Counted from the first letter of the stretch, positions 7,864-26,006 are shown. The stretch: DNA of 33,019 bases from a virus (IMGVR_UViG_3300035531_000018:1-33019); one strand, 5' to 3'. The notes: a model not told the origin generated them from the letters alone. Program-made: numbers and translations.

Positions 7864-8115
7864 CTATCTATCTATACGCTCTAAAGTTGCGTTGTCGTAG
7901 CACATCATATAGTCGCGCCCGTCCTCGACAATGCAAATTAAGTCGCCGTACTCTCTTATGGTACCGAAGTTAGTCCAAGCAACAACAATAACCTCGCCAG
8001 TGTCTTTGTCAATAACGTTGTATCTGCCCTCATCATACACCTTCGGCTTGTTGCAACTGATCATCGCTAACAGTGTCAGTGTCAGCAACAACATTAACAT
8101 TATCTTCTTCATCAT
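7864..8115 (-). CDS. Putative lipoprotein
   Basis: MMKK, hydrophobic stretch and LAMISC lipobox-like signal; AGGAGG RBS lies inside the upstream gene. Confidence 0.75.
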   Translation of the reverse strand: MMKKIMLMLLLTLTLLAMISCNKPKVYDEGRYNVIDKDTGEVIVVAWTNFGTIREYGDLICIVEDGRDYMMCYDNATLERIDR

Positions 8116-8917
8116 CTGCCTCCTTAGTCTTCTTCAACTTATGGTTGCCTTGCTTGTAGTCAACGTAACTATCATATAATATGTTCTTTAACACAACCTT
8201 CTTTGGTATCTCATACTTAAACTTAAAGATTTGTGGGAAGTAAGTCATCAAGAACGTTATTATCAACCCTACGGATATAATAAGCAAACTCACGAACGCT
8301 GTTCCGACATTGTCTAACACGAACATCATGTTGACTGTCATTGAACCAAACAACACGCCAGTGAACGCTTTTCTTATTTGTTTCTTCAACTTACCCTCGT
8401 TCTTTTTCATTGAGGCTTGGTAGTCTACGTTACCGTTCTTCGTAACCTCGTAATATAAAGGTAAGTTAAACCCATATATATTGTGTCTAATAGGCTTCAA
8501 GCCGTCATACTCTTTGCGCTCTTCTTCAGTCAACTCATCGACTGTTTTGTCGCCTACGCTGAACAAGTAGTCTTCTTGCACTGTCACTAACTCGTGAACG
8601 TTCAAAGCCTTAACATATGCTCTAAAGTCTTTCATCTCATTATTAACATTCGTTATCAATTTATTATTCAACTTGTCAGCCAACTCGAACTCTTCGCTGT
8701 TAAGTCCGTTGCTCGTGCCTGAATCATATGCACCACTGACCATGTTCACATTAAGCCATATCACGAATAATATTTGTATCCATGTGTTGTGGTCTTTGAC
8801 AGTCGACTCAAGCGTACCATCGAACGACATGACCCTATAAGCGAAGTAACCAATCAAGGACAACACTATAATTATCCATACATAATTCTTGTACACTTTG
8901 TCCATGAACTTAGGCAT
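8033..8917 (-). CDS. Membrane protein (2 TM, soluble domain, 2 TM)
   Basis: 294 aa; hydrophobic segments near aa 12-30, 45-62, 184-201 and 206-227. Confidence 0.85.
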   Translation of the reverse strand: MPKFMDKVYKNYVWIIIVLSLIGYFAYRVMSFDGTLESTVKDHNTWIQILFVIWLNVNMVSGAYDSGTSNGLNSEEFELADKLNNKLITNVNNEMKDFRAYVKALNVHELVTVQEDYLFSVGDKTVDELTEEERKEYDGLKPIRHNIYGFNLPLYYEVTKNGNVDYQASMKKNEGKLKKQIRKAFTGVLFGSMTVNMMFVLDNVGTAFVSLLIISVGLIITFLMTYFPQIFKFKYEIPKKVVLKNILYDSYVDYKQGNHKLKKTKEADDEEDNVNVVADTDTVSDDQLQQAEGV

Positions 8918-9591
8918 TACTTGTCACCACCCAACGCATCTTTAAGACTTCGCATCAAGTCGCTCTCGACCTTGTCAGCCTCATCATCAGTAATAAAGTT
9001 CTCGTTCACAAAGTACTCTAGACAATATATAGCCCAACTGATAGTTGCGATTAAGAACACCATAAATAAATTACTCACTATTGTATCAATGACTAATAGC
9101 ACTAACGTACCAGTCACTAATGCAAGCAGTGTCGATATGCGTGGGTATTTCTTGTACCACTGCATCTTACCTTGCACAACCATCAACACAATGAACACGC
9201 CAACTGCATTAATAAGGAACGCCATAGGCAACTTATACCCTGTCGAGCGTTGCAACTCTAACGCCTTAATGTCTTTCAACTCTCCATCCTCAACGCCCCA
9301 GTAGCCATCATCGGTCTGGATAATAGTCTCCTCATCGTAATAGAACACTGTACGCCCATCCTCATAGGCGAAAACACCCTCGATAACAGCACTTTCCTTG
9401 TCAGTGTATATATAAGTGTCAGTTATGATTAAGTCCTCGCTATCCGCGTGTTTTATGGTGTAATCAGGGTTGATATTGAATAGTGTTGCTGACAAGAACA
9501 AATACAACGGCAACGGCACTGCTAAAGTGAATATGGTTATTATCTTATATATCAACTTTTGCTTATTCTTCTTGGCTGCCATATAAAGCAC
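8917..9591 (-). CDS. Membrane protein (1 TM, acidic beta-rich loop, 3 TM)
   Basis: 224 aa with four hydrophobic segments. Confidence 0.85.
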   Translation of the reverse strand: MLYMAAKKNKQKLIYKIITIFTLAVPLPLYLFLSATLFNINPDYTIKHADSEDLIITDTYIYTDKESAVIEGVFAYEDGRTVFYYDEETIIQTDDGYWGVEDGELKDIKALELQRSTGYKLPMAFLINAVGVFIVLMVVQGKMQWYKKYPRISTLLALVTGTLVLLVIDTIVSNLFMVFLIATISWAIYCLEYFVNENFITDDEADKVESDLMRSLKDALGGDK

Positions 9592-9988
9592 CCTCTATCT
9601 GCTCTTTGATAGTTTGCTCGATTAACGGATTGGATAATTTACTACCAAGATCAATTTTTAATAACTTAATTAACTCATCGTTTTGTGTCTTGACTTTAGC
9701 AAGTTCTTCTTGCAACGCTTGATAATGTCCAACCATCGCTAACCACTTGTCCATAGCAGTCTTATTCATATCTAATTGCTCATTCTTAGCCTTAGTCAAG
9801 AACGCCCTAACTGCTACTGCGCCTGAGCCCAACAAGAACGTTGATGAGCCACTGACTAATGCTGTGAGCCAATTAAGGTCTAATATATCTTGATACTCGA
9901 CTGGTAGCGATAAATACACAAACGATAATATTGAGTAGCCTAACAGTGTGTACACACCGATATTAAATAATTTACCTTTTAACTTCAT
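9563..9988 (-). CDS. Membrane protein (2 TM and C-terminal coiled coil), possibly holin-like
   Basis: 141 aa; two N-terminal hydrophobic helices then a heptad-rich tail. Confidence 0.8.
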   Translation of the reverse strand: MKLKGKLFNIGVYTLLGYSILSFVYLSLPVEYQDILDLNWLTALVSGSSTFLLGSGAVAVRAFLTKAKNEQLDMNKTAMDKWLAMVGHYQALQEELAKVKTQNDELIKLLKIDLGSKLSNPLIEQTIKEQIEGALYGSQEE

Positions 9989-10191
9989 CGTGAAATCAAC
10001 CTCCTAACAACTTCTACATTTTCCAACTTAGCCTTCTTTAATTCTTCCTTAGTCTCTCTAAGTTCACTCTCTAATTTAGAGATGGTCTCGTTCGTTTCTT
10101 TTTTGAATTTAACCAACTCTTTTGTCACTGGTAGTTCCTGAATGTCTACCCACTTGATCTCGGCACCTTTGCCTTTGATTCCAACTTTCAC
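9985..10191 (-). CDS. Small coiled-coil protein
   Basis: 68 aa; overlaps both neighbours by 4 nt. Confidence 0.7.
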   Translation of the reverse strand: MKVGIKGKGAEIKWVDIQELPVTKELVKFKKETNETISKLESELRETKEELKKAKLENVEVVRRLISR

Positions 10192-10466
10192 TTTCTTACC
10201 TCCTTAAAATCTTCTTTATAAATCAATCTATATATAATTACGGACAACGGCAATATAATAAGCGGTTTTTCTAACGCAAAAGGCGACCATAAAAATATTA
10301 AATAAGCCTTTGCAAAAGTAGATAACCAACTCGGCACAAAATCAATAAAAGCAATCGCATACCAAATGCCGTTAGTAATACACCAAATAACAAGAACGAT
10401 AGGTAACATTTTAGGGGTGAGATATGGTTTCACCCACCCCCACGTTACATTAAGAATTTTCTTCAT
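10188..10466 (-). CDS. Small hydrophobic membrane protein (holin candidate)
   Basis: 92 aa, 2-3 TM segments, charged C-terminus. Confidence 0.75.
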   Translation of the reverse strand: MKKILNVTWGWVKPYLTPKMLPIVLVIWCITNGIWYAIAFIDFVPSWLSTFAKAYLIFLWSPFALEKPLIILPLSVIIYRLIYKEDFKEVRK

Positions 10467-10596: not shown

Positions 10597-13500
10597 CTAT
10601 CTTGCTACATAGTAATGAATATCAAATTCATCAACTAAAATGTCGCCTACATAAGCCGTATCATCTCTATATAATTTCATAATCATAATTGCACTGTCGC
10701 CATAGCCTACACCACTAATTGGACTTTCACCATATACCATATTTGATATTGTGCCACTCGACCACGTTGCAGTATTAACATTCATTGTGTAAGTCGTGAA
10801 AGTCGCTGGTATTGCTTCGCCATCAGGGTTGTAAATCTTATAATCAATCTTGAACACAGGTTGTCCACTACCTGCAAGCCTACAATGAACGTGCGGAACT
10901 AATGGACTGTCAGTAACTCTATTATGTGGTAACTGTGCTATGATGTAAAGTATTTCGTTTGTATTTCCATTAGGGAATAAGTAGCCAATGTTCGTGCTAT
11001 CAAAGTCAGGTCGCCCACTCGCTGGTTGCGAAAGTGCCGTAACAGGAAAACGTAAATCTTCCATAGCCATATAGTAATTTATTGTCGTTAAGCCATCAAC
11101 GTAAGTTCCTGTATAATAATACTCAACATAGAATAAGTCGCCATCAGTTGCCCCTGTAATCGCTGATATTTGATTAGATGTCAGGGTTGCTGTCGATGTA
11201 TCGAATTCAGTTTGTGAGCCATCGCTATTGATTTTAATGAGTTTATCTATTGTGCTAATGTCATATGTCGTTGTAAGACCCGATGAGTATGAAAGCACTT
11301 CTTGATACACGTTATCAACGTAAACTGTGCCGTTAGGGTGTCCTTGTAAGTTGCCTATTGGTTGCAGTTCGGTTTCAATAGGTGTTGCGAGTTCATATGT
11401 CAAGAAACCATCGCCACTTGTGCTGTCAGTGCCTATGATACCTGTTTCACTACCACCTGCCGTTAAGTAATTTATAAATACGCCACCACTTTTAGCATCA
11501 GGGTAATTCGTAAGGTCAACACTAACAACACCTGTAACATCATCAGTGCCTATGCGTTGTGTCTTAATAAGTTTACCGTTAACAGTATCTACACTATCTT
11601 TAGTATCGCCTATTGAATACCCCACGCCACCGTTCACGAACATATCGTGATTAACGTATGGCTCGTATGTGGTTGCTGTTGAGCCTTGTTCGAGTTGAAG
11701 TGTGTCTAAATCAGCCTCTTTTGAATAAGATAAAATTGCATAAATAGCATTTGAAGGTGATGTGTCCGTTGTTGCACCATCTACGAAGGTTGACAATGTT
11801 CTTGATATATAATTTTTATCATAATCATACCACGAGATATAATTTGAGTAAGTCATATTGTTGTCAATATATCTGGTATAATTAACCCCACCTATAATTT
11901 TAATATAATTAGTCCTATTTCTATTATTAACAGTCGGTTGTAGAATACCTGTTAATGAGTTTGCTTCTTCACTTAACACTATATCATTTCTATCAAACAA
12001 ATTCTTCCCAACAGCCCTATAACGCTTGTTCATGTTCTCGCTTAATATATTATTAGGCAACGTTCCGTTTTGCACCCATAAGTCCATTTGTGCTTTGATT
12101 TCACTATCACTCATTAGGTCAAACGTTGTGTCATACATTGGTGAGTATTGTTTGTTTGCTATATCAGTTTCAGTATCGTTGATATTTACTTTGTATATAA
12201 CGTTTGTAAGTGTTGCACCGTTTGCCACTACTAATGTAATAGTCGTGCCTTCTAATGTAACCACGCCACTATAATCAGTGCCATAGACTGCATTTAAGGC
12301 TGTTACGCCATTAAATAATGTGATAACGCCATCACTTGTACCACTAACATAATCTTGGTTAATATATGCTTTGTCAGTTGCGGTTAAACCTGTAACTAAT
12401 GTGAAAGTTGTTTCAGCCGTTGCTGTTCCGCTTAAAGTTATTTGATTACCACTTACAGTTGCAGTGATACCATTTGTTGTTGTAGTTGTAAGGTTAAACT
12501 TATTCTCACTATCTAACAACAACCCCTCTTGCTTAACTTTCAATTCAGCATTGGCTACATCTTTGCCTAATGCTATAACATCAGTACCTTGTGCCGTTCC
12601 TGTTTCTTCGCCTGCGTTTATCTTGCGTAACGTTTCTTGCGTATCGGCTAATTTCTTATCAAGTTCGGCATCTTTTGTTTTTAAGTTTAGTATATCAGTA
12701 TCGTTGCTTACGATATTATCAGCGTTTGTTTTGATTTGTGTGTCTAACGCTTGATTTGCTTCTTGTTGATTTGTTGCACTATCTAAATAATTACTTCCAG
12801 TTTCATCAACAACGATTTGTTCATCGTTCATAGGTTGTAATTCAATACCATAGATTTTTAATGTATAACCTGTTGCTACGTTACTAAATGTGATATCAGT
12901 CGCACCTACTGTTGCTGTGATAGTTGCGTTATCGAAAAACTCTAAAACTGTTCCATTTGTCAATTCACTCATAGGCACTTTATCGGTATCTATTTCGCCT
13001 GTTGCTATTTCTCTACAAACAAATAACACTTGGTTTTTATCAGTTAATGTGCTTAACGCTAATACACCAGTATCACCTAATGGTGTTGGTGTTAAATCAG
13101 TTTGTGTAACCCCATAACCACTAAAATAATCACTTATGATACCATCAACTTCGCTTTCGGTATAGTATCTATTGTCTAATTGTCCTGCATCTAACTCACT
13201 CGCTTTATAATAAGCGGTCGCTACATCAAACGCTAACAATTTTGAATAATCTTCTTTACTCATTAAGCCATCATTAACTGCACTTGCTAAACTAATAATC
13301 GCTTGTCCCATATTTTCCCAACTGTCGCCATCGTAATACCATTCGTTGTCATCGGTATCAACTAACACATCACCTGTAACAGGTGTTCTTGAGAAGTTAG
13401 TATCAATGTAAGTTGTAAGTAATGTTGTGTCAGCCGTAATCTCAGCAGTTGTATTGCTAATCAAACCCCTAAACACATATGCACCTTGTAACGCACTAAT

Positions 13501-14661
13501 CAATGATCTAATATCGGTATGACTATCAACAGCGCTATTATGAGTCGATATTTTCGTATTAACATTTATAATCGTTTCTTTTGTATCAAGTGTATCTTTA
13601 ACCAATTTAGCACTTGGATATTGTGTGTCATTTGGTGTTCCCCAGGATACGATTTTATTGGCAAGTAACTCTCTTAAACTAATTGCTGTTGCATTAGCAC
13701 CAATGCTATTTGCATTTGCATCAACTTCCGCTTGTAATGCTGATAAGAAAGCCGTTTTAGTTATATTTACATAGTTAGCACCACTTCTAATCAATATATC
13801 GTTATCAGCGATACTTGTTTCAACTACATTCGCCAAGTCTTTTAAGACATTCGTTACGGTCATAACTTCTTCATTACCTGACCCACGATTGATTATTAAG
13901 TTTGTGCCGTCAAAAGTTATTACAACTGTGCCATCAGCGCTATATAATGTAATACTACCAACGTTGTCTATGTCGTTGCTATCCATGTCTAAGTCGTCTG
14001 TCATTTTGCGTGTGCCATCTTTTCTCAACATCTTACTTAACTCTTCAAGTATAAGTTCAGTGTTACTTGGTGCGTGGCTTGGGTCTTCAGTGAATATACC
14101 TTGCTCTAGGGCGAAGTCTGCGACCTCTGTCACTTGCTTACTCACACCTACTTGTTTTTTTGCTTCATAATCAACCCAAGTCACTAGGTCTGCATCATAG
14201 TACCAATCCGTGTCAGTATCAATAACCCTAACGAACTGGTCATCCGTTGCGCTTGGGTAGTCCGCTGCCAACGCTGCGATTATCTCAGCACTAACCTCAG
14301 TGTTATACTTCTCAACGCCTAAGAAGTCGCCCTCAATATACCAAAACTCTACCTTAACCCTAACACCTGTTGAGTTCATAAGACTCATATCATTAAGCAC
14401 TGCGCCTGGCAACACAAAGTTCCATCTTGAATATTCGCCCTCTGCGCTTAATGGTGACATATATAGGCGCTCGGTTGCTCTTAATTTAGGATTGACCACG
14501 CTACCTTTAAGTCCTTGCACGACTGCATAGGCTGTGTTGAAGCCACTGACAGGCGCTAACACCTCAATGGTGTTGGCCTGTTCAGCGTACGCTCTTATCG
14601 GTTGCGATGTCTGAGTGTCTATCGCTAGCGTCTCGGTGTACGTTATCTTGTTTAGATTCAT
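10597..14661 (-). CDS. Large tail fibre / receptor-binding protein (1354 aa, multi-domain)
   Basis: Follows the tail genes; acidic and Thr-rich; DGLMSKEDYSKL fibre motif, coiled coils, GKNLFD...QLEQGSTATTYEPY carbohydrate-binding-like domain. Confidence 0.85.
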   Translation of the reverse strand: MNLNKITYTETLAIDTQTSQPIRAYAEQANTIEVLAPVSGFNTAYAVVQGLKGSVVNPKLRATERLYMSPLSAEGEYSRWNFVLPGAVLNDMSLMNSTGVRVKVEFWYIEGDFLGVEKYNTEVSAEIIAALAADYPSATDDQFVRVIDTDTDWYYDADLVTWVDYEAKKQVGVSKQVTEVADFALEQGIFTEDPSHAPSNTELILEELSKMLRKDGTRKMTDDLDMDSNDIDNVGSITLYSADGTVVITFDGTNLIINRGSGNEEVMTVTNVLKDLANVVETSIADNDILIRSGANYVNITKTAFLSALQAEVDANANSIGANATAISLRELLANKIVSWGTPNDTQYPSAKLVKDTLDTKETIINVNTKISTHNSAVDSHTDIRSLISALQGAYVFRGLISNTTAEITADTTLLTTYIDTNFSRTPVTGDVLVDTDDNEWYYDGDSWENMGQAIISLASAVNDGLMSKEDYSKLLAFDVATAYYKASELDAGQLDNRYYTESEVDGIISDYFSGYGVTQTDLTPTPLGDTGVLALSTLTDKNQVLFVCREIATGEIDTDKVPMSELTNGTVLEFFDNATITATVGATDITFSNVATGYTLKIYGIELQPMNDEQIVVDETGSNYLDSATNQQEANQALDTQIKTNADNIVSNDTDILNLKTKDAELDKKLADTQETLRKINAGEETGTAQGTDVIALGKDVANAELKVKQEGLLLDSENKFNLTTTTTNGITATVSGNQITLSGTATAETTFTLVTGLTATDKAYINQDYVSGTSDGVITLFNGVTALNAVYGTDYSGVVTLEGTTITLVVANGATLTNVIYKVNINDTETDIANKQYSPMYDTTFDLMSDSEIKAQMDLWVQNGTLPNNILSENMNKRYRAVGKNLFDRNDIVLSEEANSLTGILQPTVNNRNRTNYIKIIGGVNYTRYIDNNMTYSNYISWYDYDKNYISRTLSTFVDGATTDTSPSNAIYAILSYSKEADLDTLQLEQGSTATTYEPYVNHDMFVNGGVGYSIGDTKDSVDTVNGKLIKTQRIGTDDVTGVVSVDLTNYPDAKSGGVFINYLTAGGSETGIIGTDSTSGDGFLTYELATPIETELQPIGNLQGHPNGTVYVDNVYQEVLSYSSGLTTTYDISTIDKLIKINSDGSQTEFDTSTATLTSNQISAITGATDGDLFYVEYYYTGTYVDGLTTINYYMAMEDLRFPVTALSQPASGRPDFDSTNIGYLFPNGNTNEILYIIAQLPHNRVTDSPLVPHVHCRLAGSGQPVFKIDYKIYNPDGEAIPATFTTYTMNVNTATWSSGTISNMVYGESPISGVGYGDSAIMIMKLYRDDTAYVGDILVDEFDIHYYVAR

Positions 14662-14717: not shown

Positions 14718-15071
14718 TCACTCGATTGTATAAGTATAGTTTTCTAGTCTCAGCGTTTCGCCATCTTCTAACGTGATGGTGCTGTCGAACAAGTCGGTCT
14801 TAACTGCTGAATCTGCCGCCAAAGGGTCTCCATCATAAGCAGTCAAACTTGAACTAAACAACGCTACACCAATGATATTTATGCTAGATCCGCTTGAGTT
14901 AGTGAAGTCCATCTCCGTGCTATTAGCCAACACACCACTGCTTGCACTCGCCCAACTCGTGGTTACAAAGCCATCACATAAGTTAGAGCCTTCAATGATA
15001 TAACCAATTTTGTCAATAAAGCCTGTTGCGTTAAGCCTGTCTAATAATATGTTCTTGTTTTCATTTGTCAT
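14718..15071 (-). CDS. Small tail-tip / fibre-attachment protein
   Basis: 117 aa; SWASASSGVLANSTEMDF..IGVALF..TITLEDGETLR resembles small beta-sandwich tail-tip proteins. Confidence 0.6.
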   Translation of the reverse strand: MTNENKNILLDRLNATGFIDKIGYIIEGSNLCDGFVTTSWASASSGVLANSTEMDFTNSSGSSINIIGVALFSSSLTAYDGDPLAADSAVKTDLFDSTITLEDGETLRLENYTYTIE

Positions 15072-15072: not shown

Positions 15073-17988
15073 CTATATTTCCTCCAATTCTACAATATAA
15101 TAATCATATGTCGCTGGCAACGTTCCATCTGTCACACGGATAATATCGCCCTCGAATAATGTAACACTTAATTGTGTCTCAATTTCTTCGATAGTCACAT
15201 TAGATGGTGTGCTGTCAGTAAATGTGTAATCATAGTTAGTATCTAATGTCGTGGCAAGCACTCTTTGAGTCATCCTATACATACTATTGAATAATGTCCT
15301 ATTATCAAACTCAACATTTCTGTTGATAATGCGTTTAATCACATAATCTGCTGTGAATGATGTTGAGTTACTAAAACTTGCACGCTCTACTTCTATCCAT
15401 TTGCTCCAAGCCACGCTGAACGATGTTAGGTTGCTGAAGTTAGCATCTTTGAAGTAGAAGTCTAAGTCTCTCTCGAATCTTGTCAATTTAAAGTTGAACT
15501 TAATCTCGCTCACTGAATTATTACCTGCTATGACTATCTCATCGCCATACGCTAGGCACCAGAACTCTATCGCCTCATCTAGGCTATCAAGCACAGTCAA
15601 TGTCTGCCCTGTCAAGTTAACCTGTCCACCACTCACTACTGTGTCAGTCGCCCTAACGTACTTGTCGAACACTGTATAGGCTGACAAGCCTTCATATAGT
15701 GTCAGTGTCGGCGCTGTCTCGAACTCTTTGATTAAGTTGTTGTACTTAGTGAACGCGTTACCTATCACTATGTCCTCATCCTCGCTATACACGACTAACT
15801 GGCTCGTGAACGCTAACGATGCATTGATATCTTTGTCTAGTCGATAGGTTTTGTTCTGCCAATAGTCCCCTGAGCCATTACGCACTCGCGGATAATACTT
15901 GCGACTTGCTGTGTCGTCTAAATAGTCGACCTCGTTCTCTAACGTGAACGACATAGTGAATAGACTAAAATCATCCTCGTTCACATAATACACTGGGTCT
16001 TTATACCAAGCATATGTGCCTCGGCCTGCATCACCAGTGAATATCATACCATTACCAGCAATGCGTGGGTCATCGAACGCGAAGTGTAACAATATCATGT
16101 TACCACTTCCTACCCCAACGACTGGCGCATCTATACGCCTACTGCTCGCCAAGATGTTCGCGTTAGTCAACGGCTTATTGTACGCGCTATCATAGTCTAA
16201 TATGTTGAGCGCTACTTTCTCGCCATCTGCTGTTAGTAATGATGAGTCCACTTTATCATCACCTTGATACGCCTCTATGTACTGTCTATATATAAAGTTC
16301 GATTGCACTGCCTTACCAGTGAACGCATATGCGCTCGGTTGCCTTGACACTGCATACTCTCTATCGGTGTTAGAGAAGCCCTTAGCCATATCGGCTATAC
16401 ACACAATATTGTTCGTGTCTATTTGCCACCTAACATCAATGATAAGCCACTCGCCTACATAGTCGCCTAGTTGCCAGCGCTCAGCCCAAGTGTTGAACGA
16501 CTGCGTAACGTTCTTGATCACGTTACCTATACGGTTGGCTAAGGCGTTGTTGTTCTCGATGTATCTACCTATATCAACAAATGAGTCTCGCTGGTTATTA
16601 AGTATTGTTGTCTTATTCAACGTACCAGCAGTGTACTTCTCAGCAACGAAGTCAATGTCTCTACGTGGTCTGTATTTAAAACGCGCTTCGATGTTTTCAG
16701 TGTTTTCATCAATATAAAATCTATTTCTCAAGTTCCTTAATGTAATTATCTCTAGCCGTTCAGCGAACGTTAAGGCTTTAAATATCGCTTTAGTCTCACT
16801 TGATGCTGGGCTGCCATCATCGTTCAATAAGTAGTTGTCTATCAAGTTATCCCATTCGTTCTCTAACGCTGAATAGACTGCGTATTGATTAGTTGCACTT
16901 CTTAAGTGATAAATGTTGTTAGGGAAGCCTAAAAACCCTGTAATTTGTGAATATAAGTTCTCAATGTATCGTCCCTGCGCATCGTACGATACACAATTCT
17001 CTTTAACTCTCTCAGGTGTGCCATCGCCTAACCATTCATTGAAGAAGTCATCACCAATCGACTTTAATGAATTGAATCGTTCAGTCTCTAACACATTACG
17101 GGTAATATCAATGTCAATAGACGCGCCTGCTTGCAAATAATAGCGCTCGCTACCCACTGCGCCTTCATAGTCAATGTAAGTGTTGACCTTTAACTCTTTA
17201 CGCACATACACCTTATCTATCGCCATAATAGGGCTGTCCAACTCGTATCTCAGCGCTGAGGTCTGGAACATTGTCCCCTCGTTGCGTGGCGTGACCCAGC
17301 CTGCCTTCGATGGGTACCATATATAACTCGACTCATCAACTGCGTTGCGTGACTTAGCCAGTACCTCGGTTGCGTAGTCTATGTCGTTGACTGTCGACTG
17401 CTCGCCTTCAGTTGATAGTGTCAGCGCACTACCTCTCTTGGTGTATAACTCGTGCGTGATTGTCCAAGTATCAGTCGCGCTGTCGTAAGTCGCCCTTGGT
17501 ATAGCGTTGATTGACCTAAATAAGTCATAGACTATCTCGGCCAGTGACCCGCTGTATTCTTTGTTAGGGACTTGCGTGTTGAACAAGTCATCATCCGTGT
17601 AATCGAACAAAAAATCTTGATACTCTTCTAACTCTCGCTTATAGATGTCTAGTATCTCCCTTATGGTATATGGCTCGCCATTTTTTAATGTGAACGCTCT
17701 ATCAACTGGGAACACTGTCTCTAACTTAAGCATACATTCGCCTAAGTTGATTTGGTGCTCATATAAATCATCTTTGAGTAGCAACGGCTCATCTGACTGC
17801 ACGACATATTGTTCGTAGTCGCCAACCTCACCTAACTTGACCACACTGTATGGCTCGTATCTCTCTGCTCTCGTGCTCACGACTGTTATCTTGCCGTAGT
17901 CAGCAACCTCTTTACGGTTACGCTCAGCGACTGCCTCGACAACATCGGTTAGCACATCATCTATAAATACACTAATCATAATACACAC
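15073..17988 (-). CDS. Putative baseplate hub / Tal-like tail-tip protein (971 aa)
   Basis: Position in the tail module; segments such as LAEIVYDLFRSINAIPRA and WQLGDYVGEWLIIDVRWQI resemble gp27/Tal-type hub elements. The start may be the Met at 17979. Confidence 0.6.
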   Translation of the reverse strand: MCIMISVFIDDVLTDVVEAVAERNRKEVADYGKITVVSTRAERYEPYSVVKLGEVGDYEQYVVQSDEPLLLKDDLYEHQINLGECMLKLETVFPVDRAFTLKNGEPYTIREILDIYKRELEEYQDFLFDYTDDDLFNTQVPNKEYSGSLAEIVYDLFRSINAIPRATYDSATDTWTITHELYTKRGSALTLSTEGEQSTVNDIDYATEVLAKSRNAVDESSYIWYPSKAGWVTPRNEGTMFQTSALRYELDSPIMAIDKVYVRKELKVNTYIDYEGAVGSERYYLQAGASIDIDITRNVLETERFNSLKSIGDDFFNEWLGDGTPERVKENCVSYDAQGRYIENLYSQITGFLGFPNNIYHLRSATNQYAVYSALENEWDNLIDNYLLNDDGSPASSETKAIFKALTFAERLEIITLRNLRNRFYIDENTENIEARFKYRPRRDIDFVAEKYTAGTLNKTTILNNQRDSFVDIGRYIENNNALANRIGNVIKNVTQSFNTWAERWQLGDYVGEWLIIDVRWQIDTNNIVCIADMAKGFSNTDREYAVSRQPSAYAFTGKAVQSNFIYRQYIEAYQGDDKVDSSLLTADGEKVALNILDYDSAYNKPLTNANILASSRRIDAPVVGVGSGNMILLHFAFDDPRIAGNGMIFTGDAGRGTYAWYKDPVYYVNEDDFSLFTMSFTLENEVDYLDDTASRKYYPRVRNGSGDYWQNKTYRLDKDINASLAFTSQLVVYSEDEDIVIGNAFTKYNNLIKEFETAPTLTLYEGLSAYTVFDKYVRATDTVVSGGQVNLTGQTLTVLDSLDEAIEFWCLAYGDEIVIAGNNSVSEIKFNFKLTRFERDLDFYFKDANFSNLTSFSVAWSKWIEVERASFSNSTSFTADYVIKRIINRNVEFDNRTLFNSMYRMTQRVLATTLDTNYDYTFTDSTPSNVTIEEIETQLSVTLFEGDIIRVTDGTLPATYDYYIVELEEI

Positions 17989-18406
17989 TACCTTTGCCTA
18001 TACTGACCCTACGCCCTCTTAACTTATTCTCCATCTCGGTTGCAACGTTGCGCCTGTATATCTCGCGTTGTCTCAATACCTCATCGACTGAGCCTTTGAT
18101 AGCAACACCTGCTATTGCTAATGGTCCACCCTTCGCTATCAGCAATGCATAACCCCCTGCCATCATAGCGCTATTGATTCTTGACTGCAACACCTCGTTA
18201 CCAGTTGTCTTGGCTATCTCGCTACGTGCAGCGCCTATGACTGCCTGCGCGACTAATGCACCGCCTGCTATGAGTGCAGCGTTGCGCCCTAGATCATGGC
18301 TTGATGAGGCTATCTCGTTGGTCGGTGATTGCGGTGACATAGGCGTGTCGCCAGTTATCTCCTTACGCTCATATATTGTATAATTGCCTCTATTGAAGAA
18401 TGCCAT
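17972..18406 (-). CDS. Ala/Gly-rich hydrophobic protein; candidate miniature tape-measure / ejection protein
   Basis: 144 aa, two Ala/Gly-rich hydrophobic helices, located in the tape-measure slot between tube-like and hub-like genes. Confidence 0.55.
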   Translation of the reverse strand: MAFFNRGNYTIYERKEITGDTPMSPQSPTNEIASSSHDLGRNAALIAGGALVAQAVIGAARSEIAKTTGNEVLQSRINSAMMAGGYALLIAKGGPLAIAGVAIKGSVDEVLRQREIYRRNVATEMENKLRGRRVSIGKGSVYYD

Positions 18407-18407
18407 A

Positions 18408-19244
18408 TCAAGTCACCACCTCCGCGAACTCTACGACTAACTTACGTACACTGTTACGCTTAGCCGACTCATTAGCCGACCGCACTATCACTGTGTCTTC
18501 GAAGTCGCCTAATACTTCGTGCGTCTCTTTAAGTGTATACGTTCCTTTAAGTGTCGCTCTACTTCTCGACTCGTTGAACAGCGCCACACACTTAGCGTTG
18601 GTTGGGTCGTAGTTGATAGTCAATGTCACCATCTTAACGCGCCCTGTCACTGTGTTGAAGTCGTTGTCGGTTGTTGCTTTCTTGTCGGCAGTGTAGAAGC
18701 GCCTAGTCGTGCTCACATCAGCGTTCACAACATCTAATTCTAAACCATCTAAGTACCAAGTGCTTGATTGACCGAACTCGCCGATACCTAACTCGGTTAA
18801 ATTAAAAGTCACACTCAATATCGCATACTGCGCTGTCTCGCCTAAGAATGTCCAACCTCTATATTTCGGATATGGGCTGACCTTGACCGAATACTTTGTA
18901 CCATCAACCGTGATGCTCGATCCGTTCATCGCTCGGCAGACTGACTGGATATTAGCATAGTCTAAGTCCGTTGTTGCATCGTATGCATCGCCGTTGATAG
19001 GTACTAGCATACCGACCTCAAGCAACCAATCGACTCGGTTGTTGTTCTCAACGAACGGCACATCCTCACTAGTCGTTAACGCTACTGGCCTGTACTTGAC
19101 CTCTTCATTGACTAACTTACCTTCAACAGGCTCATATACGGATAGCCTATCGGTCTCAAACCTGAATAAGAAGTTACCTTTATAAACCAACCCATCTGTG
19201 TTGCTATTTAATTGTTCGATAAAATAGTCGAATATCTTTTGCAT
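18408..19244 (-). CDS. Tail structural protein; possible tail terminator / tail tube fusion
   Basis: 278 aa, beta-rich, appears two-domain, follows the neck genes. Confidence 0.55.
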   Translation of the reverse strand: MQKIFDYFIEQLNSNTDGLVYKGNFLFRFETDRLSVYEPVEGKLVNEEVKYRPVALTTSEDVPFVENNNRVDWLLEVGMLVPINGDAYDATTDLDYANIQSVCRAMNGSSITVDGTKYSVKVSPYPKYRGWTFLGETAQYAILSVTFNLTELGIGEFGQSSTWYLDGLELDVVNADVSTTRRFYTADKKATTDNDFNTVTGRVKMVTLTINYDPTNAKCVALFNESRSRATLKGTYTLKETHEVLGDFEDTVIVRSANESAKRNSVRKLVVEFAEVVT

Positions 19245-19621
19245 TATCTTAAACCTCTCATTCTTGCCGTGTCACTAACCCAACTTGGCTCGGTGCTTAC
19301 TTTCTCTAATGCACCTTGCTTTATCATGTTAGTTGACCCACGCCTGTTATTGTAGTTTTCATAGCGACTTAATACGCTCTTGTCTTGACTTGCACCAAAC
19401 CTATTCAATGCACCGACTGTCTGTTGACTTATAAAGCCTTTGTTCTTATCTGTGTAAATAGTACCTTCTTCGTTGAAGATAATATACGGCACTCGCTCGG
19501 TATCGTAGACTGTTAATAGGAAGTGTGCAGTCTCGTAATACCTTGCCCCAGCCAAAAACATAAAGCCTGTATCATAAGGCATCTGCGCTTGAACAATCGA
19601 ACGCATATCTTGTAAATTCAT
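19244..19621 (-). CDS. HK97 gp10-like neck / tail-completion protein
   Basis: MPYDTGFM motif and later PYIIFNEEGT, matching the P-x-D-T-G and Y-x-x-x-x-E-x-G-T pattern. Confidence 0.65.
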   Translation of the reverse strand: MNLQDMRSIVQAQMPYDTGFMFLAGARYYETAHFLLTVYDTERVPYIIFNEEGTIYTDKNKGFISQQTVGALNRFGASQDKSVLSRYENYNNRRGSTNMIKQGALEKVSTEPSWVSDTARMRGLR

Positions 19622-19926
19622 GTTGTCTCTATAACCTTGTCTTTGCGATAGTAACCGCGCCTAGAGTTGTTGTTGTCAGCCTTGATTTTAATTTCTGGAA
19701 GTGCGGTGATACGTTTCTTAACATCGTTCATCATTATCACACCTTTAATCTCGAACTCAACATCGCTATCCGTTATGAATCTACTACCGCTATCCTTGAC
19801 AGGTTGCCCTATGAAGTTGCTAATAGTCTTGTCGTTGGTTACATTATTACAATAGATTAAGTGTTCGTTGCCATCTAAGTCAACGTATATCAATCTTAAC
19901 TGGTTATACTTCGGCTTATGTCTCAT
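19618..19926 (-). CDS. Putative head-closure (stopper) protein
   Basis: 102 aa, beta-rich, second gene of the neck block. Confidence 0.5.
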   Translation of the reverse strand: MRHKPKYNQLRLIYVDLDGNEHLIYCNNVTNDKTISNFIGQPVKDSGSRFITDSDVEFEIKGVIMMNDVKKRITALPEIKIKADNNNSRRGYYRKDKVIETT

Positions 19927-20312
19927 CGCTTTCTCGCCCCATCTAATAACATCGCTATCCTTAACTCGTTAATAACTGTGCGTGGGTACTTGTTCTTCGG
20001 TTGATCTAAATACTCGTTCAAGTCCATACCACTCTCCATAGCGCCTTTAACGTGCTCAATTATCGCTCTCTTGAGTTGGTATTGCTCTCGTTGTTGGTTG
20101 TTGTCAACTTTGGTCTGCATATAACTAACATGGTCGCTCATGTAAGGCCCACGATATGCACTATATATCAACGACCAAATGTCTTGTGAGAATATGCGCA
20201 TCGCTTTCTTTAAATTGTTGCCTAACACAAGTCCTAACTCTTGCTCAGTGTACATTGTGTTGTCTAACACATCGCTCACATCTATGTAATACTCGTTGTT
20301 CTCTTTGTACAT
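19923..20312 (-). CDS. Putative head-tail adaptor
   Basis: 129 aa, helical; QLKRAIIEHV and YPRTVINELRIAMLL resemble gp15/gp6-type adaptors. Confidence 0.6.
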   Translation of the reverse strand: MYKENNEYYIDVSDVLDNTMYTEQELGLVLGNNLKKAMRIFSQDIWSLIYSAYRGPYMSDHVSYMQTKVDNNQQREQYQLKRAIIEHVKGAMESGMDLNEYLDQPKNKYPRTVINELRIAMLLDGARKR

Positions 20313-20325: not shown

Positions 20326-20360
20326 AAAAAAGGAAGGGTAAACCCTCAAGCTTACCCTTT
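20326..20360 (-). terminator. Terminator-like hairpin after the capsid block
   Basis: AAGGGTAA...TTACCCTT stem followed by CC and T6, overlapping the next RBS. Confidence 0.6.
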
Positions 20361-20492
20361 TTTGTTTGAAGATTTTTTTACAGGTCTTTTCTCTTCAACC
20401 CATGATTTTGACTTCAAAAACTCTTTTGCGTGTTTCAAAGGCATCTCTTTGATTTGCCCTGTCCTAACGTGTCTAATAATCTTTGTTTCCAT
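20352..20492 (-). CDS. 46-aa basic protein after the major capsid gene (not in ORF track)
   Basis: AGGAGG RBS; METKIIRHVRTGQIKEMPLKHAKEFLKSKSWVEEKRPVKKSSNKKG. Confidence 0.8.
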   Translation of the reverse strand: METKIIRHVRTGQIKEMPLKHAKEFLKSKSWVEEKRPVKKSSNKKG

Positions 20493-20516: not shown

Positions 20517-21398
20517 TTAAATAGATGCTGATTGTAATAATTTAATTCTTGCAGTTGTTGAGTCTAACAATGTATCTTTGTAGACTAATCTACCTTGTAA
20601 CGCTGATGCACCGATATGTTTGCCATCTTTTAAGTCGTTAATCGCTGGTAATACTTTCCAGTCTTCAACAGTTTGCGCCCATGGCGTTGCAAACACTAGA
20701 TATTCGGTAGTAGTGTCTTGCCCTGCTTCATAGACAGTATCTTCAACCATTAAGTTATCAGATACATAAACCATTGCGCCACCAATCTTAGACACAACAC
20801 CTTCTCTTACTAACTCTGCACCGATGGTCGATGCTGTGTTAGAGAACTTAGTGTCAGTTAATAGTTTTTCCCAAGTGCTTGATGGGATAACTACTTTAAT
20901 GTCATTGATGTTAATACCTAACTTTCTAACATTAGCGATAGATGCTAAGATAGTCTTATACATATTATCCGCTGTTGTCTCAGTAGTCGTTGTCTCTGCT
21001 GTCGCACCATCTTCTAATACGCTGATCGCATATAGTTCTTGATTACGCCCTAATGAATAGGCTGCTGAGTCGATACGTTGTGCAACTAGGTTATCTGGAA
21101 CTGCTGATGCCTCATAACCATCAATAAGTTCGTTAACTGCTACGTTTTGGTCTACTAACACTTGTGTGTAAGCAGTTGCTGAAGTCGTTAATGATACACC
21201 ACTAACCACATCATAATTAGCCACTGTTACTTCAGTGTTTCTTGTTGGGATATTGACTGCGCCACCTTTAGGGTCGCCTTCATAATCTCTTCTAAATAAG
21301 TTTCTTACTACGTTCTCTTTACGTTTGAGTGCTACGATATCCTGTGCGTATCTAATTCTCAAATCGTGTGTTCCGTTTGTTGGTAATTTAATTGTCAT
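20517..21398 (-). CDS. Major capsid protein (HK97 fold)
   Basis: 293 aa after the scaffold; RDYEGDPKGGAVNIP, GVVSKIGGAMVYVSDNL, SALQGRLVY. Confidence 0.92.
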   Translation of the reverse strand: MTIKLPTNGTHDLRIRYAQDIVALKRKENVVRNLFRRDYEGDPKGGAVNIPTRNTEVTVANYDVVSGVSLTTSATAYTQVLVDQNVAVNELIDGYEASAVPDNLVAQRIDSAAYSLGRNQELYAISVLEDGATAETTTTETTADNMYKTILASIANVRKLGININDIKVVIPSSTWEKLLTDTKFSNTASTIGAELVREGVVSKIGGAMVYVSDNLMVEDTVYEAGQDTTTEYLVFATPWAQTVEDWKVLPAINDLKDGKHIGASALQGRLVYKDTLLDSTTARIKLLQSASI

Positions 21399-22030: not shown

Positions 22031-22828
22031 CTACTTAACATACTCTAAATAACACCGACAGTTCACTCGCTCACCCACTGGCAACAACATATCACCTGGA
22101 TGGTTAGCCCTTAAGCCACCTGCTCTGAACAGGCTCCCTATCGGCACCTTCTTGTCCTTGACTGCGTTGTGCCATGGCGTGTCTCTTACGACCTTATCAC
22201 CTTGTGTGCGCCATATCTTGTGCGTATAACCCTCAGCCTCATGCACCTCAATGCTGACTATCTCGGCTTGCTCGTGTGCCTCTGTCCTCAATACTCGCTT
22301 GACCTTCCATTCCTCGTTGGTCTGTCTAAGCAAACTCTCTGGGTCAATGCCTTTCTCAAGCGCCTTATTCAAGTCACGATAGTTCACACTAGCACCCTTT
22401 ACTTGCACACGCACATTTGCACGCACTGCCTTGTTGACATTGGTCTCGTTGCTAAGTTCAAACTCGTTCCACACTAACCTTGCCCTCTTAGCAACCTTGC
22501 CTCTAGACATATCATACATCTTCTTAACGAAGCGTTCAGGCGCTCTTACGCTATACATCGCCATCAGCCCTGCGACTGCTCTGAACTCTCGCTTAGAGGA
22601 CTCTCTACGCAGTATAGAGCGCACTTGCGCTATGACCACATATAACTTAGCCTTATCTAATAAAGACTTGTCTACACCCCTTATAATGCGCTCTATACCC
22701 TCTGTTGTGGTTGGACGCTCTTGTAATAGGCGTTTGCTTATCTCTCTTTGATATCTTAACTGTCTTGGGTCGTTGGCTATAACTTGTTGTAAGGCTCTAT
22801 TCAGCCTGTCTATTGTCTTCATCTTCAT
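22031..22828 (-). CDS. Minor head / head morphogenesis protein (SPP1 gp7 / Mu F-like)
   Basis: RVLRTE, KIWRTQGDKVVR..H, HPGD....ERVNCRC. Confidence 0.9.
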   Translation of the reverse strand: MKMKTIDRLNRALQQVIANDPRQLRYQREISKRLLQERPTTTEGIERIIRGVDKSLLDKAKLYVVIAQVRSILRRESSKREFRAVAGLMAMYSVRAPERFVKKMYDMSRGKVAKRARLVWNEFELSNETNVNKAVRANVRVQVKGASVNYRDLNKALEKGIDPESLLRQTNEEWKVKRVLRTEAHEQAEIVSIEVHEAEGYTHKIWRTQGDKVVRDTPWHNAVKDKKVPIGSLFRAGGLRANHPGDMLLPVGERVNCRCYLEYVK

Positions 22829-24278
22829 CTAATGTGTATGACTCGGTGTACCTCGACTGCTCAGCGCTAATGTCTGCTAACGCTTCAGCAACCATCGACT
22901 TGGCCTCTTCATCGCTGACCTTCAGCACCTTAGCCACGACTTTATATTTAGGTATCATACCTTTGTCAGCCAACATGAACATATCATCTTTCTCTTGCTC
23001 ATCGTTAGTGACAATGGAATCGTCAAACACTATCTCTATTTTCTCGCTATCAATATCGCCATCATATCGCCCTGCAACGTTCTCTAACTCTAGCACAGCA
23101 TAGATCATGCCCTTGATAGCCTCGCTTAACACTTGCTCGTGTTTCTTCTTCGTTCTATATGTGTCGTTGTTTGAAGTTATGACTGCTTTCTCGTTCTGGT
23201 AGTTGACACCCTCTTCGCTGAATGCGTAGAAGTTCTTGCCTAGCCCTGCTCTAAAGCCTATCAACTTGACCACTTTGTCTATCGCTAAGCCCAGTTGGTC
23301 GAACTGGAATTTGCCTTGAAAGAACTCGACTGGCTTTTGCTTGTCTCCAACGTTCTCCATCGGATACATCTCAATGGCTGTGTCTTGCTCATCGATGTAT
23401 CTAACATACGACACTTGCCCTGTCGCCTCATCAGTCTGCATCTTTGTCCCAGCGAACTCACTCGACAGCACAATGCGTGTCTTGTTGTTAAGCCCTTCGT
23501 TCTGATACACATCGAATAATATATCTGCGTTCTTGAAATAACTTATCATGGTTGAATATATACTCACACCATGCGGTAAGTTAATATTATGTTGGTTTTG
23601 AATGTTCGGCCTAATCACTTGGAAGAACGGATACGGCATCTCGAACTCCATAACAGGCTCACCATCGTACACTAACGCTAACGGTGCCTCTTTACCTAAC
23701 TCGCCTTTCTTGTCGCTCATGTACGCCTTATGCTCGACCTTATACACACCGTTCTTGACACTATGATACACCAAGTGTGACACATAGTTGTCTTTGACTT
23801 TGTTTATTGTGTAAGTGACTAACGCAGTCAAGCGACCGTTATCCCATGCTAATGGAAATCCGTTTTGGAAGTTGATGAAGTCTATCTTAGTCTCACCCTC
23901 TTCTAGGTATTCGACCATATAGCCCATACCCATACCAAACGCTAACTCTAACAGGTTGGCGAACTGTGTCTCGAAGTTGTTATCACTCAACACGTTCTTA
24001 ACCAACTCTGCTGTATTCTCGTTCTCAATCTTAATCTCGCATTTGTTGTTCCAAATAAGGCTGACCCAGTCCTCGCATAACTTCTTCGGCATGTTCATTG
24101 TCATACGCTCGAACTCTCTTTGCTTACCTGCAACGCTCTTCTTGAAGGTATGAAAGCCATTGACATCGCCACGATACCAACTAAACCATTGTTCTTGTTT
24201 CTTGTCTATGTCGCCAACTATTGGATTAAACCCATGTCTGCGACTGACACTAATTATATCTTGTAAGTACCCTGCCAC
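22797..24278 (-). CDS. Portal protein (SPP1/A118-like)
   Basis: 493 aa after TerL; WFSWYRG, MNMPKKLCED, PHGVSIY, IVFDDSIV. Confidence 0.92.
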   Translation of the reverse strand: MAGYLQDIISVSRRHGFNPIVGDIDKKQEQWFSWYRGDVNGFHTFKKSVAGKQREFERMTMNMPKKLCEDWVSLIWNNKCEIKIENENTAELVKNVLSDNNFETQFANLLELAFGMGMGYMVEYLEEGETKIDFINFQNGFPLAWDNGRLTALVTYTINKVKDNYVSHLVYHSVKNGVYKVEHKAYMSDKKGELGKEAPLALVYDGEPVMEFEMPYPFFQVIRPNIQNQHNINLPHGVSIYSTMISYFKNADILFDVYQNEGLNNKTRIVLSSEFAGTKMQTDEATGQVSYVRYIDEQDTAIEMYPMENVGDKQKPVEFFQGKFQFDQLGLAIDKVVKLIGFRAGLGKNFYAFSEEGVNYQNEKAVITSNNDTYRTKKKHEQVLSEAIKGMIYAVLELENVAGRYDGDIDSEKIEIVFDDSIVTNDEQEKDDMFMLADKGMIPKYKVVAKVLKVSDEEAKSMVAEALADISAEQSRYTESYTLDEDEDNRQAE

Positions 24279-25675
24279 TCTTTATCATTCCTTTCATAGC
24301 CTTTCATACGTAGTATTGCGTTCTCGATCGGTATAATGTCATCTAGGAAGCAATACTCGAAACTATCCAGACTGTCAACGTTCGTTGTTGAATCATCTTT
24401 CCTGTTGTCGTGCTTGTCTCTCTCAGCCTCGCTTAAGGCTCTAATAAGCTCCTTGTTGCTCTTGTCTATGATTAGATAGTCTGCACCAAACATTAGGTTA
24501 ACTATCTGTATTCTTTCCTCTATCGCATCAGTCTCTTTCTTATGCCTAATAGTCTTGTTGACTGGCTGTATCGTAAAGCGCCCAATGCCTCGCCTTGTCT
24601 TCTCTTTGCGCAAATATTTCCAAAATGTCTTGTTAGCACTGTCCACATACACCTTAAGAGGTTTAGCGAACTCTAACCAATAGTCCTCCATGAACTCGAA
24701 GAAGTCCTCAGCGTACTCCTCAATGCCCTTGTCGCCTTTGCTGACGCCGTTCTTGTGATAGTAAGTGTCTAGCACCCTTGCGCCCTTGTAGCTCTTTAAG
24801 ATACCGAACAGCGTAAACACTGTCGCATCAGTCTCGCCGTAGTCGACACCAACACTGAACTTGATATACTCATTAGGGTCTCTTAGCACCGTGTCAACGT
24901 GCACTTGCTCATTGAACTTCTTATACACCGAGCCAGATAAGTTGGCTGGTAAGCCTAGATAGATGGACTTGTACTGCTCGTAATCTATCTCTTTCAGCGC
25001 CTCTATCTCTGCTAACGCTATATCACCTAGCCACTCTCTTTGTTGCCACTCTGGTGCATCGTTGTAGTTAGTGTGTTGGATATATGTGTCACGCCCAATG
25101 CGCCCTTGCATCTTTCTTAGCCACTCATACACCCAATGGCTAGTCTTGGGCGGTGGGTTGAACTCATACAATATTATAAACCAATCCTTCTGCTCTCTAA
25201 CGTAGTTAGATATAACATTGTTCATCTCCGCTTCAGAGTCGAACTGCGTTATCTCGAACAGCCACAATATCTTTATCTTGTTACCCAACTTAGTCGGTCT
25301 TGCACCCTTGCTACTCTCGTAGTCGTTCAAGCCAACGAAGTGGATATAGTTACCCTGATCCGTGTTCATCCATAGCGTTGCGTTCTTGCCGACTGGGTAG
25401 TTCTCATGCGCTGTCAATTCCCAACATAAGCGCTGGAAACCTATCTTAAGCCCAGCGAACGTTGTATCTCTATGGTCTTTGTACACCTTACGCACCACGA
25501 CTGCCTCTGCTTGAGGGTCACTGGCCATCAAGAACGGTATCTTAACCTCGTTCGTGCTGGACTTAAAAGACAACCGCCCACCTTTGTTGATTTGATGGAC
25601 AGTGTGCTTATCGTTAAAGTGCTTCAGATGCGGTTGTGCGACAATCTCACTTATCTTAATCTTCTTCGCTGTCAT
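24254..25675 (-). CDS. terL: Terminase large subunit (PBSX-like)
   Basis: KGGRLSFKSS Walker A-like, FNPP, HTNYND, GVDYGETDAT nuclease motif, DSLDSFEY. Confidence 0.93.
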   Translation of the reverse strand: MTAKKIKISEIVAQPHLKHFNDKHTVHQINKGGRLSFKSSTNEVKIPFLMASDPQAEAVVVRKVYKDHRDTTFAGLKIGFQRLCWELTAHENYPVGKNATLWMNTDQGNYIHFVGLNDYESSKGARPTKLGNKIKILWLFEITQFDSEAEMNNVISNYVREQKDWFIILYEFNPPPKTSHWVYEWLRKMQGRIGRDTYIQHTNYNDAPEWQQREWLGDIALAEIEALKEIDYEQYKSIYLGLPANLSGSVYKKFNEQVHVDTVLRDPNEYIKFSVGVDYGETDATVFTLFGILKSYKGARVLDTYYHKNGVSKGDKGIEEYAEDFFEFMEDYWLEFAKPLKVYVDSANKTFWKYLRKEKTRRGIGRFTIQPVNKTIRHKKETDAIEERIQIVNLMFGADYLIIDKSNKELIRALSEAERDKHDNRKDDSTTNVDSLDSFEYCFLDDIIPIENAILRMKGYERNDKEWQGTYKI

Positions 25676-26006
25676 CCACAATCACCGTAGGTGTTGGCTT
25701 CTTCGTATAGTTGATGTCTTGGCGGTCGGTCCAACCGAAGTTCTTAAGTGCGAATATGTCACCTGCTCGACCGTTCTGTCTAAGTGACAACTCATAAGCG
25801 TTCTCGACTCTCATACGAGCCATATTAATCATATGTTTAAAGCCATCACGCTTAGCGTAATTATAGAAAGTATCTTTCACAATACCTAAATGCAAACACA
25901 CCCCAGTGATAGTTATTTGTTCAACTGGAGTTATTTTAAAATATTCATCTAACTTTTCTTTCATTCGCTCAGGTGTAAATTTTAATTCTGATCCGTTCAA
26001 AAGCAT
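25656..26006 (-). CDS. terS: Terminase small subunit
   Basis: TITGVCLHLGI..DTFYNY HTH and GDIFALKNFGWTDRQ; directly upstream of terL. Confidence 0.88.
   Translation of the reverse strand: MLLNGSELKFTPERMKEKLDEYFKITPVEQITITGVCLHLGIVKDTFYNYAKRDGFKHMINMARMRVENAYELSLRQNGRAGDIFALKNFGWTDRQDINYTKKPTPTVIVDDSEED

Follow-up and report, generated by a model that had tools for sequence, protein, structure and literature searches.

How can a phage that encodes the neck and the baseplate hub of a long-tailed virus build a tail without a separate gene for the tail tube? Tailed phages fall into three types, with a long non-contractile, a contractile or a short tail, and the short tails are built from different proteins. 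The question is raised by six adjacent genes on the minus strand of the viral sequence IMGVR_UViG_3300035531_000018:1-33019 (33,019 nt in full, hereafter the window), which encode proteins of 129, 102, 125, 278, 144 and 971 amino acids (aa). A preliminary description, made from the sequence, had read this cassette as a siphophage-type neck followed by a tail reduced to a stub. In this study, we find that the cassette arrangement is real and conserved. We further propose, with a probability of roughly two in three, that a siphophage-type apparatus has been cut to a stub in which the 278-aa protein forms one ring, two layers high, that links the head connector to the hub.

Two predicted folds in a cassette without a separate tube gene

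The window represents a circular phage genome of ~32.9 kb that is close to complete (CheckV 94%). Because its 126-bp terminal repeat marks the genome as complete, no gene should have been lost through fragmentation. The cassette follows directly after the genes for TerS, TerL, an SPP1-type portal, gp7, a scaffold and the major capsid protein (Table 1), and the only open reading frame (ORF) that separates the 278-aa gene from the hub gene is the 144-aa gene, which overlaps the start of the hub gene. No match to the tube, Dit, chaperone, sheath or tape-measure families was found among the window ORFs searched (44 by Pfam and 30 by PHROGs). As to a myophage, no sheath-sized ORF lies between the neck and the hub and no sheath or wedge family occurs among the 44 ORFs. 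The six cassette genes themselves have no match in Pfam or NCBIfam and two weak matches in PHROGs (E 0.0078 and 0.042), so that annotation pipelines overlook this family, and sequence-profile searches against the PDB gave no useful match for the 278-, 971-, 129- and 125-aa families.

Homologue searches with the 278-aa protein yielded 12 close proteins and 52 representatives, and the alignment of the 52 full-length members served as the input for AlphaFold2. The resulting model has two domains, with a predicted local distance difference test score (pLDDT) of 93.2 and a predicted template modelling score (pTM) of 0.82. Residues 1-154 match the T5 p142 terminator entry 8bcp (VIA Z 9.2, root-mean-square deviation (rmsd) 3.5, 135 aligned), the necks of P74-26 (Z 9.6), SaPI1 (Z 9.6) and NF5 (Z 9.3-9.4) and the terminator of A-1(L) (Z 8.3), the matched neck chains being mostly identified by entry title and length, and Foldseek matched the N-terminal domain to lambda gpU (E 0.02). 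Residues 150-278 match the tail core of YDC107 (Z 11.8, rmsd 3.8, 125 aligned), the RcGTA tube (Z 11.6, rmsd 2.7, 119 aligned), the monocin tube (Z 11.5), the lambda tail (Z 11.2) and the SPP1 tube (Z 10.3). An independent search of 48,161 chains reproduced the split into a terminator and a tube half, and both halves are covered by 52 of the 52 aligned homologues, a set selected as full length. Furthermore, the whole model could be aligned over both domains with a 272-aa neck chain of phiCD508, assigned by its length to the terminator gp53 (Z 8.9, rmsd 6.2, 212 residues), and this alignment speaks for a possible stacked two-layer hexamer. An internal duplication was rejected at the sequence level because the two halves are unalike as profiles (hhalign probability 0.5%). 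We consider these models to predict a terminator-type domain joined to a tube-fold domain, the latter of which would stand in for both the tube and Dit.

Variation among the homologues also bears on the domain boundary. Compared with the window protein, P0006, P0007 and P0008 are 100, 99 and 91% identical in the N half (residues 1-150) and 34, 39 and 38% identical in the C half (after residue 154), and they represent natural crossovers at the boundary. In the strongest recombinants, at the loci L001 and L005, identity falls at this boundary, with the N half tracking the neck genes and the C half the 144-aa and hub genes. As a separate observation, enlarged 278-type proteins of 444-465 aa occur at L051 9124-10521, at L055 630-1997 and in P0030, and their extra sequence may represent ring accessory domains.

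The 971-aa protein was modelled over residues 4-840 (pLDDT 84). Its VIA matches were gp27/Tal/VgrG hubs at Z 15-17, among them the needle entry of phiCD508 (Z 17.0), VgrG1 (Z 16.0), the monocin tip (Z 15.9) and the 80alpha baseplate (Z 15.8), in alignments of ~280 residues spread across model positions 1-540; the comparison barely extended to positions 545-837. The layout is a gp27-like core with a large insertion (model residues 1-540), a beta-rich region to ~840 and a variable C-terminal tail; homologues vary freely past residue 840, and some of their C-termini carry the Pfam family PF09479. The top Foldseek match is a 953-aa tail chain of HFTV1 (E 3e-12). The model thus points to a hub of the gp27/Tal type. 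A tape measure or a podovirus nozzle was rejected for this protein, given the hub fold over residues 1-540, and the podovirus tail class (T7/P22 nozzle, phi29 collar) does not fit because the distal protein has a gp27 hub core.

The preliminary description is confirmed in what it observed and partly supported in how it read it: the six ORFs are where it had placed them, all on the minus strand; its hub-like label agrees with the AlphaFold2, VIA and Foldseek results, whereas the helical tape measure or podovirus nozzle that it had named as the refuting case failed; and the reduction of a long-tail apparatus to a stub is supported by the two-domain fold and the gp27/Tal hub. Its statement that a separate tube, chaperones, a sheath and a long tape measure are absent holds for the genes; one correction concerns the tube, whose fold makes up the C-terminal half of the 278-aa protein, joined to a terminator-type domain that the description had missed.

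Conservation of the cassette and its small proteins

The 278-aa profile returned no locus in a contig pattern scan and did so in whole-genome profile searches. The gap between the 278-type and hub genes does not exceed 520 nt in 29 of 30 distinct loci, a count that was made after loci without a hub match had been dropped, that includes the window and some near-identical contigs, and in which one gap is shortened by a run of Ns. Therefore, the arrangement is not due to chance. Such a gap has room only for a protein of 139-158 aa, and a 144-type match lies inside it in 27 of the 30 loci. The exception in gap length is a duplicated partial copy in L060. There, stopper-like, gp10-like and partial 278-type genes are repeated as a block at positions 10788-12795, probably through an assembly artefact.

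Across these loci the cassette is retained down to about 20-30% identity, together with its own hub and fibres, and it sits behind at least two unrelated head modules. In L008, L010 and L015, the terminase/portal/capsid module in front of the neck-tail cassette is not that of the window, an observation that suggests modular exchange at the capsid-adaptor boundary. The complete GenBank genome OP947164 (PinkBerry-associated phage LS06-2018-MD08) encodes a 283-aa protein (E 4e-31), a 147-aa protein (E 4e-12) and a hub (E 9e-48) of this family. In addition, full-length structural matches to the 278-aa model were found in BFVD for Siphoviridae sp. ctr592, cttDR14 and ct43U4 (template modelling scores 0.80, 0.76 and 0.55) and one further entry. 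When a distant hub and two 278-type proteins from distant relatives were searched against the phage collection by tblastn, no match was obtained.

The 144-type protein is 139-158 aa long across 27 loci (mean 146, standard deviation 4.4), the two longest values coming from ORFs that were called at their first start. The protein begins with a short strand, which we take to resemble the N-termini of tape measures. A linker rich in proline comes next, then one or two hydrophobic segments, and finally a C-terminus whose basic and aromatic residues are conserved. In 19 of 19 sequences, the hydrophobicity of a 19-residue window reaches at least 1.3, and the family has no match in Pfam, PHROGs or NCBIfam. 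Judging from its position and anatomy, the 144-aa protein appears to be the remnant of a tape measure.

Upstream, the 129- and 102-aa neck proteins are conserved. For the 129-aa protein, one distant positional equivalent weakly matches the head-tail adaptor family phrog_541 (E 0.015). The 125-aa family matches phrog_5 (tail completion/Neck1) in two of 12 close members (best E 0.0069) and in two of nine distant members (E 2.6e-5 and 3.1e-4); the window's own protein has no phrog_5 match. These relatives bear out the earlier gp10-like label, and a PxDTG motif is conserved in the family.

Table 1. Features of the window, with positions counted from its first letter
Feature	Position	Strand	Basis
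129-aa protein, likely head-tail adaptor (SPP1 gp15-like)	19923-20312	-	post-capsid position; conserved
102-aa protein, likely stopper (SPP1 gp16-like)	19618-19926	-	position and size; conserved; no family match
125-aa protein, tail completion/Neck1 (HK97 gp10-like)	19244-19621	-	phrog_5 matches in relatives
278-aa protein, whole	18408-19244	-	two-domain predicted fold
278-aa N-terminal domain (about residues 1-152), predicted tail-terminator-type fold	18789-19244	-	AlphaFold2, VIA, Foldseek
278-aa C-terminal domain (about residues 153-278), predicted tail-tube fold	18408-18788	-	VIA
144-aa protein, likely mini tape measure/pilot protein	17972-18406	-	between tube-fold gene and hub gene
971-aa protein, predicted baseplate hub/Tal	15073-17988	-	AlphaFold2, VIA, Foldseek
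117-aa protein, likely whisker/collar-type fibre accessory	14718-15071	-	family profile against PDB chains
1354-aa protein, likely tail fibre/receptor-binding protein	10597-14661	-	position; no family match (Pfam, PHROGs, NCBIfam)
Five small late genes, 4/5 with predicted membrane spans, usual lysis-module site	8033-10466	-	hydropathy scan
Major capsid protein	20517-21398	-	phrog_267 E 8e-16
SPP1-type portal	22797-24278	-	PF05133 E 5.5e-24; phrog_533 E 3e-85
Terminase large subunit	24254-25681	-	PF04466 E 4e-18
126-bp repeat of bases 1-126	32873-32998	.	assembly circularity

A proposed one-ring tail and its alternatives

According to the model that we propose, the order from the head would be portal, adaptor (129 aa), stopper (102 aa), 278-aa hexamer, hub (971 aa) and fibres (117 and 1354 aa). 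The terminator layer of the hexamer would face the stopper, and its tube layer would sit on the hub trimer with nothing in between. A tube domain that bears its own cap could not be extended, and polymerisation would stop at one ring; because each tube domain comes with its own terminator, assembly chaperones and a long ruler would be dispensable. Ring thickness has been given as 3.83 nm per layer (PMC8718954; here and below, publications are cited by PMC number and from excerpts of their texts), and two layers (2 x 3.8 nm) would give a ring of about 8 nm, to which the hub is added. Beneath the gp10-like protein, the lumen would be closed by the 144-aa protein, whose C-terminus would dock in the hub; its ~90 helix-like residues (13.5 nm; limits picked by eye) would span the ring and the hub cavity. 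On receptor binding it would be ejected, and its hydrophobic segments may help to open the membrane. This model draws on the predicted folds of the 278-aa domains and of the gp27/Tal hub, and on the sequence of a complete genome in which a further gene for a tube, Dit, a chaperone or a long tape measure was not recognised.

Several points weigh against this model. The virion is known from its genes alone, and both the oligomeric state and the number of rings are what we infer from them. At Z 11, a tube fold and a Dit fold are not separable with certainty. The labels of the 144-, 129- and 102-aa proteins come from position or size and stand outside the fold and family evidence. The step in identity at the domain boundary is not general, the two halves being equally diverged in P0002-P0005, L008 and L011. 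Moreover, RcGTA has 36 and HFTV1 31 tape-measure residues per ring, and at these ratios the 144 residues correspond to 4.0-4.6 layers, or two double rings (PMC7296036, PMC12494034).

The last point also speaks for a different arrangement, in which the 278-aa protein stacks upon itself as a short polymer of two double rings, and the 144-aa protein is the ruler for these four layers with their height of about 16 nm. The tight conservation of the 144-type length would suit a ruler, and a tube-on-terminator contact is conceivable, as the two domains share a fold family. However, the first 38 residues of the 144-aa protein are proline-rich, and the ~90 helix-like residues that remain for measuring must reach the hub too. 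Terminators are established as ending polymerisation for lambda gpU and T4 gp3 (PMC8718954), and chaperone genes are absent from the locus. We consider self-stacking to be unlikely.

It is also rather improbable, in our view, that the stub exists as modelled with the 144-aa protein being a podovirus-like plug or ejection protein and with length set by the fusion alone. A one-ring tail requires no ruler, the 144-aa protein is without family or fold support as a tape measure, and the tape measure of RcGTA itself resembles the P22 tail needle (PMC7296036). Set against these considerations, the position of a tape measure, between the tube-fold gene and the hub, is kept in the 27 loci with a profile match, and hydrophobic segments occur in the 144-aa protein together with a C-terminus that is conserved.

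Tandem tube-fold trimers are known (PMC8718954, PMC12494034), and the two 278-aa domains could accordingly be imagined side by side in pseudo-hexameric trimer rings of the T5 pb6/HFTV1 gp41 type, three or four high and with no true terminator. This is very improbable, because the halves are not only unalike but match different ring types, and the T5-type tube proteins of T5 and DT57C, with their tandem domains side by side, fit the whole 278-aa model badly (rmsd 19.8-21.6 Å, about 20 Å, compared with 6.2 Å for the hexameric tandem terminator gp53). Finally, no particle is known and satellites that borrow tails exist, but a defective or helper-dependent element that borrows its tube and tape measure, or an assembly that lacks these genes, is hardly credible for a circular and complete genome whose 126-bp terminal repeat led us to reject incomplete assembly, whose layout recurs in the complete OP947164 and in an integrated prophage, and whose cassette has been kept over so many diverged loci with its own hub and fibres.

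Hosts, neighbouring genes and known systems

The host of the window phage is likely a wall-less bacterium of the Izemoplasmatales, an order described as wall-less (PMC10470597, PMC10868615). The record of the close relative L034 is titled uncultured Ca. Izemoplasmatales, and the 278-aa profile matched 5 of 158 Izemoplasmatales genomes (the seed included). In samples of 400 genomes each from the class and from the phylum, by comparison, it matched 4 and 3, respectively, with two of these being the same Izemoplasmatales genomes. Eight contigs from four Izemoplasmatales genomes carry the cassette, some interrupted by contig ends or Ns, and genes for penicillin-binding proteins (PBPs) or FtsW were found in none of five Izemoplasmatales bins, which are incomplete genomes. 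On the other side of the balance, these contigs measure no more than 2.7-12.5 kb and may have been placed in the wrong bins, and one hub contig of a close relative is in a bin titled Gammaproteobacteria.

A distant version of the cassette occurs in 3 of 12 genomes of another order of Bacilli, and in two of the three the profile matched at E 2e-15 and 4e-7. All three encode PBPs, and the cassette is thus present in PBP-encoding hosts, where the hub genes were assigned partly by position; PBP genes are no proof of a thick wall. In G242, the distant relative is a prophage within a 3.2-Mb contig that encodes three PBPs; it lies near secA, has a serine recombinase and shows the same gene layout (148, 113, 100, 271, 148 and 800 aa). 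Restriction of the cassette family to wall-less hosts was rejected on this evidence. The earlier suggestion that the stub suits a host with only a membrane to cross therefore agrees with the Izemoplasmatales bins and is not the whole explanation, as the prophage resides in a PBP-encoding chromosome. At G242:C1 about 2737500-2779400 (L067-L069), this prophage seems to interrupt a gene for a comFA-like helicase, with sbcCD-like genes nearby (names read from the sequences). In another relative, the 40-kb apparently circular phage contig L062 (G163:C17), a ParM-like actin ATPase and an FtsK/SpoIIIE protein are encoded at 6618-9764 next to an integrase-like gene, and the contig is possibly a phage-plasmid.

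Downstream of the hub gene, the 117-aa family profile matches 110-aa chains over their full length (Sf14 neck 9c39_K, E 0.0027; Bas63 connector 9mt4_I, E 0.039), and 1 of 11 members has a weak Pfam Gp80 match (E 0.073). The whisker and collar proteins of Bas63, of which 9mt4_I may be one, are related to GP4 fibre I (PMC12609058). A 213-aa protein at L050 2349-2990 consists of two tandem 117-aa whisker-like domains, whereas elsewhere the paralogues are separate and number one or two per locus. The relatives of the 1354-aa protein range from 1225 to 1480 aa. Among the window ORFs scanned with Pfam, PHROGs and NCBIfam, no lysin family and no recognisable endolysin was found; nor was a Pfam lysin found in the late-region ORFs of G218, G242, G163, L027 and MD08, which cover part of each genome and do not establish absence. 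Equivalents of the small late genes are present at L060 959-3120, L067 15317-17492 and L062 1562-3780, again as small membrane proteins with no recognisable endolysin. Such membrane proteins take up the lysis site in the prophage of a PBP-encoding host too, and they may represent a lysin-free release system. Elsewhere in the window, a 46-aa basic unlisted ORF (20352-20492, minus strand) lies between the capsid and adaptor genes and is followed by a terminator-like hairpin and a T run, and the early region (30973-32202, minus strand) encodes an N6/N4 DNA methyltransferase (PF01555).

Taken further, these results may describe a widespread undescribed class, in which a long-tail lineage became podovirus-shaped through a terminator-tube fusion that limits itself to one ring on a gp27 hub, with a tape-measure remnant of ~145 residues as plug and membrane opener and with release without a recognisable endolysin, in phages that infect wall-less Izemoplasmatales and basal Bacilli related to them; the class may underlie the morphotype of the unsequenced Acholeplasma virus L3. 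We offer this wider proposal tentatively, at slightly under even odds. If the one-ring model is true, the stub would be shorter than every tail of this type that has been solved, a short tail can be made from long-tail parts, a minimal gene set for such a tail is defined, one gene fusion provides a simple route from long to short, and the role of a tape measure can be tested where nothing needs to be measured. The family also offers candidate phages of free-living wall-less bacteria, and the prophage in the 3.2-Mb chromosome contig makes the morphology testable, provided that its host can be grown.

No description of a terminator-tube fusion or of a one-ring siphophage tail was found in the literature searched, with subscription papers outside its coverage. 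In OP947164, the cassette genes are annotated as hypothetical and the hub as fibronectin-like, and the phage has been assigned to no host (PMC10370329). Acholeplasma virus L3 (MV-L3) is likewise a tailed phage of a wall-less relative, with a 39-kb circularly permuted, terminally redundant genome, a 60-nm head and a tail of about 10 x 20 nm, which fits the predicted look and genome class (PMC13375369). It is compared by description, no accession being given in the table of PMC13375369, and may be an unrelated podovirus; that it is the same morphotype is speculation.

Among the better-known systems, tails of the SPP1/lambda type share with the cassette a terminator-type fold, a gp27-like hub/Tal and a gp10/gp16.1-like completion protein, whereas their separate polymerising tube gene, separate Dit gene, and long tape measure with upstream chaperones are missing here. 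HFTV1 (PDB 9H4P) has a rigid short non-contractile tail and a 953-aa tail chain that is by its size the hub, but it differs in its eleven tube hexamers, 341-aa tape measure, separate connector ring and 56-nm tail (PMC12494034). Because the rmsd between the 971-aa model and the HFTV1 chain is 27.6 Å over the whole chain, only domains are shared. The terminator gp53 of phiCD508 (PDB 9GB5) has 273 aa in two tandem domains and forms a hexameric ring under the stopper (PMC11948020); a two-domain terminator is therefore already known, and the fusion as such is less novel. However, gp53 caps a 57-ring contractile tail in which tube, sheath and tape measure are proteins of their own, and the two gp53 domains are mutually similar (PMC11948020), whereas the second domain of the 278-aa protein best matches tube proteins and no tube or sheath gene follows.

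The closest comparison in architecture is with RcGTA (PDB 6TBA/6TOA), which has a siphophage-type adaptor, stopper, terminator, tube fold and hub and a short tape measure (PMC7296036) and has been called the shortest tail of its kind (PMC8718954). In RcGTA, the terminator is separate, five tube hexamers are joined by one of Dit, and the tape measure has ~216 residues for these 6 rings (PMC7296036). In contrast to an RcGTA-type gene transfer agent, the window phage has replication genes of its own, with a primase, a helicase, Sak4 and an exonuclease encoded on the same circular genome (Pfam/PHROGs). In the window phage, the terminator and tube folds are predicted in one chain, there is no Dit gene, and the candidate tape measure has 144 aa; if the proposed model is true, one ring would take the place of the six (five tube and one Dit) in the shortest described example.

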